Source of the DNA: Alphaproteobacteria bacterium | GTDB lineage: Bacteria; Pseudomonadota; Alphaproteobacteria; SP197 | Assembly: GCA_965228895.1 (NCBI GenBank) | Contig: OZ245842.1 | Location: 5,056,001-5,120,000 of the forward strand | DNA: 64,000 bases | Direction: 5' to 3' | Shown here: positions 17,365-21,214 of the stretch, one piece after another | Layout of the letters: every line of letters starts with the position of its first letter | Position numbering within the stretch: the first letter of the stretch is position 1 | Made by a program: the position numbers and the translations under genes | Notes under the pieces: model-generated | Seen by the model: only the letters and a program-made list of their open reading frames with translations | Databases searched by the model: none | What the model was told of the DNA's origin: nothing

Positions 17365-17904
17365 ATGGAAACTCGTTCCGCGCCGGCCTCTGCGTCCGTC
17401 GAGGTCAAACACGTCACCGAACTCAACCGACTCGATCTAGACGACCTGTGCGATGCCACAGACGCCGCGATCGTAGACGGTAACGGCTTCGGCTGGCTGA
17501 ACCCCCAGCCCCGCGAGCAGATCCAGCGCTACTGGAAAGGTGTGCTGCTGGTGCCCGAGCGCGAGCTTTGGGTCGGCCGGCTGGATGGCACCATCGCCGC
17601 GTCGGCGCAGCTGCAAAAGCCGCCGCGCAACAACGAGGCCCAGGCCCATTCGGCCCAGTTGACGACCCATTTCGTCGCGCCCTGGGCGCGCGGTCACGGG
17701 CTGGCCGCCATGCTGTTGCGCGCAGCCGAGGATTTCGCCCGCGAGATCGGTTTGAGCCACATGCGCCTCGACGTCCGCTCGACCCAGGCCCGCGCGATCG
17801 AGCTCTACGAATCCAACGGCTATGCCCGTTGGGGCGAGCTGCCGTCCTATGCCAAGGTTGGCACCGACTTCGTCACCGGCTTTTTCTACGTCAAGAAGCT
17901 TTAA
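17365..17904 (+). CDS. GNAT family N-acetyltransferase
   Basis: FVAPWARGHGLA acetyl-CoA motif, LDVRSTQ..AI.LY...GY. Confidence 0.9.
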   Translation: METRSAPASASVEVKHVTELNRLDLDDLCDATDAAIVDGNGFGWLNPQPREQIQRYWKGVLLVPERELWVGRLDGTIAASAQLQKPPRNNEAQAHSAQLTTHFVAPWARGHGLAAMLLRAAEDFAREIGLSHMRLDVRSTQARAIELYESNGYARWGELPSYAKVGTDFVTGFFYVKKL

Positions 17905-19331
17905 TTCACCTGCGGGCGCCATAGATAGGCGTCGCGGTAGCGCTGCGGGTTGATGTCGCGCAGCAGACGAATGATCTGCAGACCCTGTTCGTGGGTCAGG
18001 TTGCCGCCATAGTAGACACCGACCCAGCCGTTGTCCGATGGTTCGGTGACGCCTGCCTGGTTGTCGGTGACGGCACTCGCCTGGGCGGCGCACAAGGGTT
18101 CGCCGGCGAGATCCAGGATGGCATCAAGGCGCGCCTTGTTTTCCGGTTCGCTTGCCGCCCGCTTCATGCGCTCGAGATAGGCGCTTGCCTGGTCTTCCTT
18201 CTGGAACGACGCCAGAAAGACCCGGTAATCCGCGTTCTCGAAACGATTGAGCGCGAGCAGGAAGTCGCCGAGCTGGACCTCGTTCCGGCATGCCATCAGA
18301 CCAAGCATGTAGTCTGCAAGCTGCACGGGATTGAAGTACTGGTCGATCTGCACGTAGTAGGTTGGCTCGACCTCGTCGCGGGGATTGCAGAAGTAAACCG
18401 GCAGGAACTTGTTGACGAAAACCTGGTCAAGTGGCGCCGGTTCCTGGTTGGCCTCGATCATGGCCTTCAGATTGGCCCGCGCCGCGCCCATGTCGTCGAG
18501 CAGGATGTTGTTGATCGCCATCAGCATCAGGATGTCGGAGCGGAAACTTGGCAACCGGTCATCGTCGCTTCCATCGATCCGATCGAAGATCGCCTGATAG
18601 ATCTCGTTCGATTGCACGAGCGCACGCTGCGCCTGATCGCTCACGGGCCAGGCCGGCACGCCCGCACCATCGTCGCTGAAGTAGCCGATCATGGATTTTT
18701 CCTGCAGCGCCCGCGCCTTCAAAAACTCCGCGTAGAGAACGAAGCGGCTCTCGGGATAGCTGTCGATGACCAGGTCGGTAATGGCGATCTTGCCATCGAT
18801 GTAGTCGTCGGTGCGGCCGCGCCCATAGAAGGCGTCGTAGAACAGGCCGCGGCTGTTCATAAGCGCACGGTCGACGATCGCGCGGTTGTGGTCGTCGAGA
18901 CGCTCATCGCCAGTCACCAGGCCGTAGAGATAGGCTTGGTCGCCTGTCAGATCGCTCGACACCCAGCCCGGCGGCAGGTTGGCCAGAACCTGGGCGAAAG
19001 CGATCATGCCCTCGACCGTCGGCGCCTGGCGCATGGCCTCGGTCAGCTTCGCAATTCTCTCGCCGACGCAATCGACGTTCAGTCTTGAGCCGCATGTGCC
19101 CGCGGGCGCTTGCTCCGCTGCGTCCCGCAGTTGCGAGCAGGCGGCGTAAATCTCCGCCATCAGACCGGCAAGATCGGCGGCGTAACTCGCCTTGCCCGTG
19201 GCGATATCGTCGATCAGATCGTCGAGATCGCGGTCGATCTCGTCGAGATCACGTTGCTCGATGGCGGCTGACGCCGGAAGCGCCGCCAGGCACATCGCAA
19301 CGGCAAGGAAGGCGCCGACAACGAACTTCAT
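17901..19331 (-). CDS. Secreted hypothetical protein (476 aa): helical/TPR-like region and SPOR-like C-terminus
   Basis: GGAG RBS; signal peptide ending ASA; YPESRFVLYAEFLKARA TPR-like helix; YRVFLASFQKEDQA...GVYYGG...DAYL SPOR-like pattern. Confidence 0.75.
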   Translation of the reverse strand: MKFVVGAFLAVAMCLAALPASAAIEQRDLDEIDRDLDDLIDDIATGKASYAADLAGLMAEIYAACSQLRDAAEQAPAGTCGSRLNVDCVGERIAKLTEAMRQAPTVEGMIAFAQVLANLPPGWVSSDLTGDQAYLYGLVTGDERLDDHNRAIVDRALMNSRGLFYDAFYGRGRTDDYIDGKIAITDLVIDSYPESRFVLYAEFLKARALQEKSMIGYFSDDGAGVPAWPVSDQAQRALVQSNEIYQAIFDRIDGSDDDRLPSFRSDILMLMAINNILLDDMGAARANLKAMIEANQEPAPLDQVFVNKFLPVYFCNPRDEVEPTYYVQIDQYFNPVQLADYMLGLMACRNEVQLGDFLLALNRFENADYRVFLASFQKEDQASAYLERMKRAASEPENKARLDAILDLAGEPLCAAQASAVTDNQAGVTEPSDNGWVGVYYGGNLTHEQGLQIIRLLRDINPQRYRDAYLWRPQVN

Positions 19332-19348: not shown

Positions 19349-20218
19349 TTACTGGAAGGGGTCGCCGCTTTCCTGCGGCATGAACTGTCGGGTGCAACCC
19401 CATTCCATCTGCTGGCGATCCGAAACGATGACCGTCAGATCAGGATGCGCATCGTCGTACTTCACCTCAAGCAATGGTGGGCGCACGTTCGTATCCTGAC
19501 CTTCATGATAGATCACCGCGCCTGAACCGTCGGACAGAATCGGCACCGGCAGCACGTAGGCGCCGGAAACGTTGAACGGCCGGATGATGCCGGAGGGTTC
19601 ATCAAAGTCGTCGCCATGATTGTTTCTGAAATTGATGAAGGTGGGTTCTTCGCTAAAGCCGGTATCGGTAAACTGAAGTTGCGCGCGGATCTGGCTCAGA
19701 TAGACACTTTCCTCGCGGCATAGAAACTTGATGAAGAGCACGCGGCTGTCGCGCTCATCATCGGCCGCGGCCTGTCGCGCACGGAAGTCCGCTTCCAGCT
19801 CTTCGCGGCGAAGCGCGTGGGCCGACTCCAGCTCGGCCATTTCAATTCTGACTTCTTCCTGCACCTTCGCGTCGAAGTTCACCATCTCGTTCAGGTCTTC
19901 GATGGTCATCAGGCCGCCATCGGGACGCAGCACCAGCCATATCAGACCCATGTAGACGGCCGGTGCGCCGCCCAGGGTGATCCATTTCCATTCGATCTTG
20001 CCCGTGCCGCCCAGAATGCCGACAAAGGCGACGGTCAGCGCCGCCATCAAGAAGAGAAACGCAAACAGGCCATTGGGTTTGCTCAAGGTGGCAAACACGA
20101 CAGAGAGAATGATCAGCGTGCCGAAGATCGCCAAAACAAAGGCCAAGAAGAAGACGCCGGAGACTTGGCGGCCGGTTTCGTACGCCGCCGGTTCGGGCGG
20201 TGTTTCATCCGTCGACAT
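19349..20218 (-). CDS. Hypothetical membrane protein (3 TM helices, coiled coil, soluble C-terminal domain)
   Basis: Three hydrophobic segments, charged heptad region EMAELESAHALRREELEADFRARQ; GAGGT RBS overlapping upstream stop. Confidence 0.75.
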   Translation of the reverse strand: MSTDETPPEPAAYETGRQVSGVFFLAFVLAIFGTLIILSVVFATLSKPNGLFAFLFLMAALTVAFVGILGGTGKIEWKWITLGGAPAVYMGLIWLVLRPDGGLMTIEDLNEMVNFDAKVQEEVRIEMAELESAHALRREELEADFRARQAAADDERDSRVLFIKFLCREESVYLSQIRAQLQFTDTGFSEEPTFINFRNNHGDDFDEPSGIIRPFNVSGAYVLPVPILSDGSGAVIYHEGQDTNVRPPLLEVKYDDAHPDLTVIVSDRQQMEWGCTRQFMPQESGDPFQ

Positions 20219-20230
20219 GGCAGTCAGACC

Positions 20231-20560
20231 TCACCAACAGTCACAGGAAAGCCAGCACCCCCACTCGCCGCAGCAATAGTCCCAGCGACAGGACTGCGCG
20301 ATGGTGACCTCGCCATCCGCCGTCCACGCGGACTGTCTGCGTTCGTCGTCAGAGTTGGCCGGGCGGATCAAAACGTCAGGAATGGCAACGCCGGCGTAGG
20401 CCAGGGCCGCCGTCCACGGACGATCGGGTATCACGCCGCACAGGCTGTCGCCGGCTACCGGGTGAACCCCGGGCCGGGCCACATCATCGCCGCCAAAGGA
20501 CGGTGTCGTAAACGCCAAGGCGAGAACAACAACAAGAAAAACGGGAACCCGGGCTAGCAT
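20231..20560 (-). CDS. Secreted prepropeptide-like protein (109 aa) with a C-terminal Cys/Trp-rich core
   Basis: AGGA RBS before ATG 20560; hydrophobic signal peptide; ends IAQ-SCRWDYCCGEWGCWLSCDCW. Confidence 0.7.
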   Translation of the reverse strand: MLARVPVFLVVVLALAFTTPSFGGDDVARPGVHPVAGDSLCGVIPDRPWTAALAYAGVAIPDVLIRPANSDDERRQSAWTADGEVTIAQSCRWDYCCGEWGCWLSCDCW

Positions 20561-20602
20561 GACTTTTCCTATACGGAAACTCAAAGCTCGCTCGACACAA
20601 TG

Positions 20603-20631
20603 AATTTAGTAAATCTGAAATAGACTGTCAA
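20603..20631 (-). promoter_or_regulatory. Sigma70-type promoter for the peptide operon
   Basis: Minus strand TTGACA-17 bp-TAAATT in an AT-rich gap about 40 bp upstream of the ATG. Confidence 0.75.
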
Positions 20632-20665
20632 ATCGCTGGCCAGCCACACGAAATTGAAAAGGTAA

Positions 20666-21214
20666 TCACGGGTCGATTCTACTGTCGGTCTGGCGCCAGC
20701 GCAAGACACCGAACGCGACGAACATCAATCCGACCGCCGCCAGGACGGCGGCGAAGATCACGCGGTCATTGCGGATCTGGCGCAGGCTGTCGATCACGGC
20801 CGTCGCTGACGTGATGTCGACATTGCCGGCGGCAAGACCCCAGATAAGGGTGCGGTTGAAGGCACTCGACGCGCCGGGCCACATCTGCACGGTCACATCG
20901 CCCTCGATCGCCAGCTTGACCTCATCATAGGCCGGCAGGTTCGAGCGATAGAGTACGGGGCGGGAGCCCGGCTCTAAAATGGCGCGGAACTCGACAATCG
21001 GGCTGCCGGAAAACAGCGGTATGCCGCCCGATTGGATATCAATCTCGGCGGACTGCGAGGCCGAGCCGGTCACCGGGACCAACTCGGCCTCATCAGGATA
21101 CTCGGCGAACAGTGGCTCGGAGCCCTGCCAGACACCAAGGACCAGCAGGATCGTGCCCGCCACGATGGGCGCGTGGGGTTTCCAGCCCAGACTGCGCGCA
21201 AACCGTCCGATCAT
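20666..21214 (-). CDS. Hypothetical membrane protein (N- and C-terminal TM helices)
   Basis: Single ORF filling the gap; two hydrophobic segments flank a soluble domain. Confidence 0.6.
   Translation of the reverse strand: MIGRFARSLGWKPHAPIVAGTILLVLGVWQGSEPLFAEYPDEAELVPVTGSASQSAEIDIQSGGIPLFSGSPIVEFRAILEPGSRPVLYRSNLPAYDEVKLAIEGDVTVQMWPGASSAFNRTLIWGLAAGNVDITSATAVIDSLRQIRNDRVIFAAVLAAVGLMFVAFGVLRWRQTDSRIDP

Follow-up and report, generated by a model that had tools for sequence, protein, structure and literature searches.

A conserved three-gene locus for a predicted exported, cysteine- and tryptophan-rich peptide in marine Alphaproteobacteria

Exported disulfide-rich peptides are well known from animals, from plants and from a few bacterial toxins and defensins, and we know of only few such families in Gram-negative environmental bacteria. 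Here we describe the gene for a small cysteine-rich peptide (gene A) and the two genes that follow it (B and C) in a stretch of 64,000 nucleotides (nt), called the window, from an alphaproteobacterium of the GTDB lineage SP197 (assembly GCA_965228895.1, contig OZ245842.1, positions 5,056,001 to 5,120,000 of the forward strand); all coordinates below are those of the window. Several described systems resemble this locus in part. According to the account in PMC6356903, the heat-stable enterotoxin STa of Escherichia coli is made as a pre-pro-peptide of 72 amino acids (aa), composed of a 19-aa signal, a 34-aa pro-region and a mature C-terminal peptide of 18-19 aa, its three disulfides are made by DsbA in the periplasm, and it leaves the cell through TolC; the cysteines of STp are given there as mature positions 5, 6, 9, 10, 14 and 17. 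Bufferins are presented as Sec-exported, copper-binding members of the peptides that are synthesised on ribosomes and modified after translation (RiPPs), which are modified by an MNIO enzyme and need both the MNIO (DUF692) and a DUF2063 partner (bioRxiv 10.1101/2024.03.18.585515). The bacterial cis-defensins, as characterised in PMC11561630, are secreted disulfide-rich peptides that were sought with the expression CX(2,18)CX(3)CX(2,12)CX(4,17)CXC.

Gene A lies at 20231..20560 on the minus strand (109 codons plus TGA, with the ATG at 20560 and the TGA at 20233-20231), an assignment based on the open reading frame (ORF), its homologues, their alignment and the ratio of non-synonymous to synonymous substitutions (dN/dS). 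An earlier interpretation of this DNA made from the letters alone (the sequence-only reading) had described a prepropeptide-like ORF here, and both its coordinates and its content proved to be correct. A ribosome-binding site, AGGA (20567..20570, minus strand), can be read from the sequence 6 nt upstream of the ATG, and its AGG is kept in all three species of the genus. The alternative start TTG at 20584, which would add 8 residues, was rejected; it has no ribosome-binding site and is unsupported by the relatives. The source genome carries one copy of the gene.

The 109-aa product is divided into three regions. Residues 1-24 (20489..20560, minus strand) resemble a Sec-type signal peptide, i.e. 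MLAR is followed by a hydrophobic core and by TTPSFG-G; the n-region has a charge of +1 and the 11-residue window starting at residue 7 has a mean Kyte-Doolittle value of 3.40. Signal peptides were called with a heuristic of our own, based on hydropathy and charge, together with the recurrence of the same layout in all relatives, and cleavage would probably fall near residue 23-24. Residues 25-85 (20306..20488, minus strand) constitute a fast-evolving spacer that contains an invariant Cys41, a conserved W-T-A-A motif and a non-conserved RR at 74-75. Residues 86-109 (20234..20305, minus strand) are a conserved block, delimited like the spacer by alignment and dN/dS, in which TIAQS (TIAQ being residues 86-89) precedes a core with six Cys and four Trp that ends in Trp. 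The core comprises the final 20 residues, SCRWDYCCGEWGCWLSCDCW, with the TGA next. Its six Cys are spaced as C-x4-CC-x4-C-x3-C-x-C and make up 30% of the residues, including a CC and a CxC motif; there are also 4 Trp and 1 Tyr, and the net charge is -2.

The conservation of gene A was investigated in 61 genomes, i.e. the source genome (G000) and 60 relatives. Eight of these gave a match at E <= 0.01 and three of the matches were full length, namely those in the source genome itself and in both other genomes of the genus (G001 and G002; 73% and 45% identity). None of the 58 remaining relatives searched gave a full-length match, and the five weak matches found (E 0.002-0.008, stretches of 25-62 residues, three of them with an internal TGA) were taken as noise. 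A collection of 5.8 billion proteins holds the identical 109-aa protein and two metagenome relatives (70% and 68% identity). The remark that ORFs as short as this one easily escape annotation does not hold in this case, since the exact product was already in a public protein collection. All that contigs from four sequencing runs showed was one identical copy, one close variant and one copy like P0005.

The distribution of substitutions along the gene is conspicuous. In the alignment of the five genus-level sequences 21 of the 24 residues of block 86-109 are invariant, and the remainder of the protein drifts. Between the window and G001 there are 20, 10 and 43 nucleotide differences at codon positions 1, 2 and 3, respectively, i.e. 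43 of 73 fall on the third position. For the last 24 codons dN/dS is 0.010 between the window and G001 (8 synonymous and 1 non-synonymous difference) and 0.12 between the window and G002, and for the spacer it is 0.23-0.52. In other words, gene A is a genuine gene under strong purifying selection in the annotated frame. A 246-aa ORF on the opposite strand (19817-20557, plus strand), which overlaps gene A and the start of B and is open in G001 too, was rejected as a coding frame because the substitutions would fall on its codon position 1; it looks like a typical chance ORF of GC-rich DNA.

A sigma-70-like promoter (TTGACA, a 17-nt spacer and TAAATT; 20603..20631, minus strand) was detected upstream of gene A by a consensus scan with 10 of 12 matches. 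All three species (window, G001 and G002) have an identical -35 hexamer; the -10 region is nearly invariant, with a single change in G001 and another in G002, and the site probably functions as the promoter of the gene. The mean column identity of the 140 nt upstream of gene A (20561-20700, minus strand) is 91% in the three species, against 81% for the coding region. We note that this region is also better conserved across the three species than the spacer of gene A and that the conservation includes stretches beyond the -35 and -10 hexamers, so that 20561-20700 may hold a site for a regulator or an element of a 5' leader. An Rfam scan of 20100-20900 gave two matches with E values of 0.72 and 0.88, both far under the gathering scores.

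The wider family was collected by profile and pattern searches and consists of 14 intact members and a fifteenth with an in-frame stop; its taxonomic range is to be read as a lower bound. A profile of the five genus-level sequences, run against 1.84 billion representative proteins, gave 8 matches at E <= 0.001. Six of these (60-121 aa) end in the motif. The other two, in proteins of 529 and 3574 aa whose sequences were not retrieved, were discarded; their alignments, broken into many stretches, were confined to spacer positions 21-64. Two further members came from a profile search of 400 more genomes that belong to the Dinoroseobacter family. A loose DNA pattern applied to the genome collection picked at least 119 stretches, mostly low-complexity Cys/Gly/Trp frames of GC-rich genomes. 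Among the 119 stretches listed three are true members (a metagenome-assembled genome of the same genus, Dinoroseobacter sp. S76 and an uncultured Sulfitobacter), and a stricter pattern picks exactly the same three from the 119. As the loose pattern gave at least that number of stretches, further family members may exist in the genome collection. Applied to metagenomes, the stricter pattern gave four stretches, i.e. two true members and two of low complexity. So far, and again as a lower bound, the family is known from the alphaproteobacterial genus of the source, from genomes of the Roseobacter group and from metagenomes of marine or biofilm origin. The member with the in-frame stop, a TGA in the spacer, is on a low-coverage metagenome contig (L135:1000-1210, minus strand) and has an intact B gene next to it; the TGA could be a sequencing error, the mark of a pseudogene or a site of read-through.

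The variability within the family follows a simple pattern. The sequence C-x4-CCG-x2-GCW-x2-C-x-C is present in all 14 intact members, with 1-3 residues between the last Cys and the stop. In the numbering of the window protein the invariant positions are C91, C96, C97, G98, G101, C102, W103, C106 and C108, and W109 is nearly invariant. The residues between the core cysteines are variable across the family, the Cys scaffold is not. An N-terminus resembling a signal peptide was found by the heuristic in all 14 intact members, and the spacer is long in the source genus; the short forms from Rhodobacteraceae have almost none. Each member has at least one additional Cys upstream of the core, with one or two extra; counted after the hydrophobic stretch there are seven Cys in 12 of the 14 members and eight in the other two, and in the short forms (56-63 aa) the extra Cys stands 14-16 residues ahead of the first core Cys.

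These comparisons bear on much of what the sequence-only reading had proposed. The organisation into signal peptide, variable region and Cys-rich C-terminal module recurs in all 14 intact members, and the prediction of conserved Cys and Trp beside a variable pro-region holds in the alignments and in the dN/dS values of core and spacer. The frame and the cysteines are likewise preserved in homologous DNA, as seen from the third-position bias and the invariant Cys scaffold. The dibasic RR at 74-75, singled out as a trait of the spacer, fared less well: relatives carry RK, RS, CG or GN at this place, even within the genus, and RR is therefore unlikely to be a processing site. An acidic core was correctly read for the window peptide (charge -2) and is a trait of this genus, but it does not extend to the family, where the net charge of the core ranges from -2 to +3 and the number of core Trp from 2 to 4. 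Finally, the simple picture of three disulfides is complicated by the seventh Cys upstream of the core, which had gone unmentioned and is found in every member.

Library searches with the peptide gave a consistent result. The window protein has no Pfam family at E <= 0.1 and no NCBIfam or PADLOC family, scans of 12 members against Pfam and NCBIfam gave no family match, and a sequence search of the PDB with the family profile gave 0 matches at E <= 10. In the ESM Atlas the top feature score was 0.82, which is under the useful range. Word searches of the literature did not find a description of the family, which is weak evidence, as the motif itself is unsearchable as words. The peptide family is new in sequence, in scaffold and in partners; its general kind, the exported disulfide-rich peptide, is known.

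The genes next to A are as constant as the scaffold of the peptide. The next gene after the peptide gene is B, or a B-like gene, in all 9 loci, and gene C comes after B in all 7 loci with sufficient flank. The order A-B-C is found in the window, G001, G002, Dinoroseobacter, Sulfitobacter and two further Rhodobacteraceae-type genomes; two short metagenome contigs have room for the start of B only, or for B alone. In the window 12 nt separate the stop of A from B, and 17 nt lie between B and C. This constant order makes A-B-C a three-gene module that was previously undescribed, and the cassette may serve its marine hosts as an envelope module. B and C are rare in the collection of 5.8 billion proteins (4 and 6 sequences, respectively, including the query). 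Searches of both against Pfam, NCBIfam and PADLOC gave only sub-threshold noise; sub-threshold matches in the library scans of B, C and the peptide were DUF6541 (E 0.078), KwaA (E 0.09), CpcE (E 0.052) and LapB_rpt_80 (E 0.051).

Gene B (19349..20218, minus strand) was assigned from its model and from the conserved order and encodes a membrane protein of 289 aa. Its AlphaFold2 (AF2) model, built from an alignment of 8 rows with a mean predicted local distance difference test score (pLDDT) of 64.5, contains transmembrane (TM) helices at 21-44, 48-70 and 78-97, then a long helix (residues 115-157) and lastly a beta domain (residues 160-265). In a fold search with the whole of B the top Z was 7.4 with the helical part alone matched, and no convincing fold emerged. 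Because the N-terminal tails are long and have no signal peptide, and the second loop is basic, the N-terminus of B is probably inside, and the C-terminal domain would accordingly be in the periplasm. The invariant positions of the B alignment contain a Cys at the end of the first beta strand and no Ser, His, Asp or Glu. B occurs in a long and a short form, between which BLASTP gives E 0.35 and hhalign gives E 4.9e-5 with a probability of 68% for the TM region only; homology of the two forms is thus moderately supported. A fragment of B on contig L136 matches the window protein at E 3e-7.

Gene C (17901..19331, minus strand) encodes a secreted protein of 476 aa, its start being the second ATG of a 500-aa ORF, as in the relatives. 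According to its AF2 model (pLDDT 71.6, again 8 rows) and fold matches, a signal-like N-terminal helix is followed by a helical-repeat (TPR-like) body and by a C-terminal beta-alpha-beta-beta-alpha-beta domain. The TPR-like matches are weak: the best Foldseek E is 6e-3, there is nothing at E <= 0.001, and VIA gives Z about 10-11, a range common to any helical repeat. Residues 368-474 of the model match the SPOR domain of RlpA (6i0n_A) with Z 8.7 and a root-mean-square deviation of 2.2 over 75 of 77 residues, and the order of secondary structure elements agrees with the SPOR fold. The Pfam SPOR model (PF05036) gives E 0.047 and 14.5 bits on the window protein, against a cut-off of 21, and has no match on the C-termini of the Dinoroseobacter and Sulfitobacter proteins. 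SPOR domains bind glycan strands stripped of peptides at division sites, i.e. the fold binds peptidoglycan, and entry 6i0n_A is a SPOR domain complexed with such a glycan. The window protein matches the Dinoroseobacter C at E 5e-8 (BLASTP) across the C-terminal 150 residues, and C is homologous across orders. A single Cys, C315, is invariant in C, and no catalytic motif could be recognised among its invariant positions. When residues 26-476 of C, 100-289 of B and 24-109 of the peptide were predicted as a complex, the score was 0.00 with an uncertain fold of the partner, a result that speaks neither for nor against binding. At the other side of C, a GNAT acetyltransferase gene (17365-17904, plus strand) converges with it, and the two ends share four bases; between the genes no terminator-like site was detected.

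The cassette is accessory and patchily distributed. A search with the B protein alone gave no match when 300 other genomes of the class were sampled. In the window a 182-aa protein of no known family, with a hydrophobic stretch near each end as judged by eye (20666-21214, minus strand), separates the peptide gene from a class-III aminotransferase. Three genomes of sister genera have an orthologue of this aminotransferase (77-80% identity), and in each of them the counterpart of the 182-aa membrane protein (30-39% identity) keeps the same place after it. The peptide, B and C were not found at this locus in any of the three, for 7-8 kb beyond it in two genomes and for about 1 kb in the third. 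The 182-aa gene was considered as a fourth gene of the cassette and rejected, as it accompanies the aminotransferase where the cassette is missing; it is therefore outside the cassette, which looks inserted. The cassette adjoins DUF3768 and XRE-type helix-turn-helix (HTH) genes in Dinoroseobacter (L056:514-4876) and an IS110-family transposase fragment in Sulfitobacter (L096:3801-7933). The mobile or accessory neighbours at these two loci also include a 1008-aa protein with a sub-threshold TPR match (E 0.0054). The local GC content of the window cassette is 57-61%, slightly low against about 63% in the flanks. The source genome, which is 98.7% complete, contains 11 DsbA-family and 3 DsbB-family matches.

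Taking the gene, its family, the conserved scaffold and gene order, the folds of the partners and the Dsb genes as observed, we tentatively favour, with somewhat less than an even chance of its being right, a Sec-exported and Dsb-oxidised knot peptide that acts at the envelope as a bacteriocin-like agent or a signal, with B and C as its partners. The product of gene A would be a precursor exported via Sec. Its functional part would be the C-terminal module of about 20-25 residues, C-x4-CCG-x2-GCW-x2-C-x-C-W with variable loops, and the spacer may be a dispensable pro-region or a tether. Oxidation of the six core cysteines by the Dsb system of the periplasm would give a compact disulfide knot, which is feasible since DsbA- and DsbB-family genes are present. 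Once folded, the peptide may be an envelope-acting effector. B, predicted to be a membrane protein with three TM helices and a periplasmic coiled-coil and beta domain, and C, predicted to be a periplasmic TPR-like/SPOR-like protein, would serve it at the membrane and the cell wall as cognate proteins for immunity, reception or handling. Within this proposal a bacteriocin-like effector seems the most likely function and a signal or ligand a less likely one. The bacteriocin-like function fits best because a small exported Cys-rich peptide, an adjacent membrane-protein gene, a patchy distribution and some mobile-element neighbours come together. A wall-binding partner such as C makes sense if the target of the peptide is the cell wall or the division site.

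Several points weigh against this proposal. An odd Cys count (seven in most members) is unlike a simple three-disulfide peptide, and the acidic core of the window peptide is unusual for membrane-active peptides. B is far larger than typical bacteriocin immunity proteins, its long and short forms are only weakly related, and we know of no TPR/SPOR protein that is a bacteriocin accessory. A route for crossing the outer membrane is not encoded in the cassette. Moreover, both AF2 models are of middling confidence and come from shallow alignments.

There is a different reading, in which the peptide stays uncleaved as a small periplasmic subunit or regulator of a complex of the envelope or the division site and its knot docks onto C or B. 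The TPR-like groove of C would hold the knot and its SPOR-like domain would direct it to septal peptidoglycan, or the docking would be on the periplasmic domain of B, and the seventh Cys might form a mixed disulfide with C315 of C or with a Cys of B that is conserved and periplasmic. By prediction the three products all face the periplasm, only short gaps separate the genes, C combines the SPOR-like fold with TPR-like repeats, and the invariant Cys of both partners could receive the unpaired one. A patchy, accessory distribution with some mobile-element neighbours would be uncommon in core envelope machinery, however, and the loops between the cysteines differ strongly among members; we consider this reading rather unlikely. 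The seventh Cys also invites a bolder thought, namely a new class of bacterial knot peptide in which it tethers the knot to peptidoglycan-bound C at division sites, by a covalent mixed disulfide with the invariant Cys of C, or joins a Cys-Trp cross-link made by B or C as enzymes of a new kind, to which we give little credence. Cross-linking is the essence of another explanation, a RiPP or cofactor-like precursor in which B, C or an unlinked enzyme of a new type would join Cys and Trp by tryptathionine- or CTQ-type thioethers. Cys and Trp do alternate in the core, which has an invariant GCW and an almost invariant W at the C-terminus, an odd Cys would remain after three disulfides, and a new activity is conceivable in proteins that, like B and C, belong to no known family. 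On the other hand, the cassette contains no radical-SAM, MNIO, flavoprotein, P450 or protease domain, and a search of the genome (98.7% complete) with the MNIO model PF05114 gave 0 matches, with Caulobacter vibrioides as a positive control. B lacks Ser, His, Asp and Glu among its invariants, C has no recognisable catalytic motif and resembles a binding protein, and W103 is the only Trp invariant across the family. Modification in trans, which the sequence-only reading had offered as one option, has no support, as the cassette brings no known modifying enzyme and what is conserved beside the peptide is a membrane protein together with a TPR/SPOR-like one; we regard the RiPP explanation as quite improbable.

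A periplasmic metal-binding peptide, similar to metallothioneins or metallophores, would use its six or seven thiolates to chelate Cu(I), Zn or Cd, with Trp shielding the site. The Cys content of the core with its CC and CxC motifs and the extra upstream Cys of the family agree with this. Metallothioneins have a high Cys content and few or no aromatic residues, whereas the present core is rich in them (4 Trp and 1 Tyr in 20 residues). With a Dsb system in the periplasm, disulfides would be more likely than free thiolates. The cassette and the genes next to it include none for metal resistance, metal sensing or efflux, B and C have no metal-related features, and the MNIO gene was not found in the genome. 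There is a precedent in the bufferins, described as Sec-exported Cys peptides that buffer copper (bioRxiv 10.1101/2024.03.18.585515), but on balance metal binding seems unlikely. The most sceptical explanation is that gene A is spurious, either a frame open by chance in GC-rich DNA or a pseudogene in decay. Such DNA does yield many long chance ORFs, several of which overlap gene A, and the L135 member has its in-frame TGA. Nevertheless, the frame-specific purifying selection, the conserved promoter and ribosome-binding site, the conserved gene order and the presence of 14 intact homologues with the same terminal motif in two alphaproteobacterial groups and several unassigned metagenome sequences make this explanation hardly credible, and we regard it as refuted.

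The scaffold C-x4-CCG-x2-GCW-x2-C-x-C-W has no relative in Pfam, NCBIfam or the PDB and is accompanied by two partners that are equally unknown, in a three-gene module that is compact, movable and testable. Should the peptide be a bacteriocin, or an effector on algal hosts of Roseobacter-group bacteria, it would be a new competitive agent in marine communities and also a small, very stable scaffold. Should it be wall-tethered or cross-linked, it would point to new envelope biology and a periplasmic chemistry not yet seen. The general importance is limited because the family is rare.

The locus can finally be set beside the systems it resembles. With the bufferins it shares a Sec-signal-like N-terminus on a Cys-bearing precursor (14 of 14 members by the heuristic). 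Unlike them, it has no MNIO (DUF692) or DUF2063 gene in the cassette, and the peptide members have no match to DUF2282, a bufferin family like BUF_6/12Cys. As the source on bufferins names both enzyme and partner as needed, a bufferin-type route is not supported for this peptide. The cis-defensins have the secreted, disulfide-rich layout and the signal peptide, here a predicted one, in common with our family. Nevertheless, identity with them was rejected, since the pattern in the cited work matches 0 of 14 members and the conserved module, with its roughly 20 residues, is not long enough for the cysteine-stabilised alpha-beta fold. C-x4-C-C-G would fit the loose gamma-core formula of disulfide-stabilised antimicrobial peptides, a match to which we give no weight.

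In peptide signalling of the RRNPP (Phr/PapR) type the precursor is also small and exported, its active part is C-terminal and a helical-repeat protein is encoded alongside. The fold matches of C include PlcR-PapR (2qfc, Z 10.3) and Rap proteins (Z 9.1 and 8.7), values in the range common to any helical repeat. RRNPP peptides are short and linear and are not known to carry cysteine knots. Their receptors are cytoplasmic TPR proteins with an effector or DNA-binding domain; C has an N-terminal helix like that of a signal peptide, its C-terminal domain is SPOR-like, and it has no HTH or other DNA-binding domain. The comparison with Sec-dependent bacteriocins and their membrane immunity genes is one of general knowledge, not of a family model. 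In both cases a small gene for an exported peptide is followed by a gene for a membrane protein (9 of 9 loci here), and the distribution is patchy, sometimes with mobile-element neighbours. The present B is about 280-300 aa long and has a periplasmic domain, a third, TPR/SPOR-like gene is constant, and the hosts are Gram-negative with no apparent export route through the outer membrane.

STa is similar in layout only, as far as it is described in the source given above, i.e. in the pre-pro organisation and in the C-terminal six-Cys module of about 18-20 residues that ends one residue before the stop. STa genes are, to our knowledge, not linked to genes such as B and C. The Enterotoxin_ST family has no match to the window protein at E <= 0.1 or to the 12 members scanned at E <= 1, and nothing in the present hosts, which are environmental marine bacteria, points to a guanylate-cyclase target. 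In place of the STa spacing the peptide described here has the framework C-x4-CC-x4-C-x3-C-x-C, it is rich in Trp, and it carries a seventh Cys.

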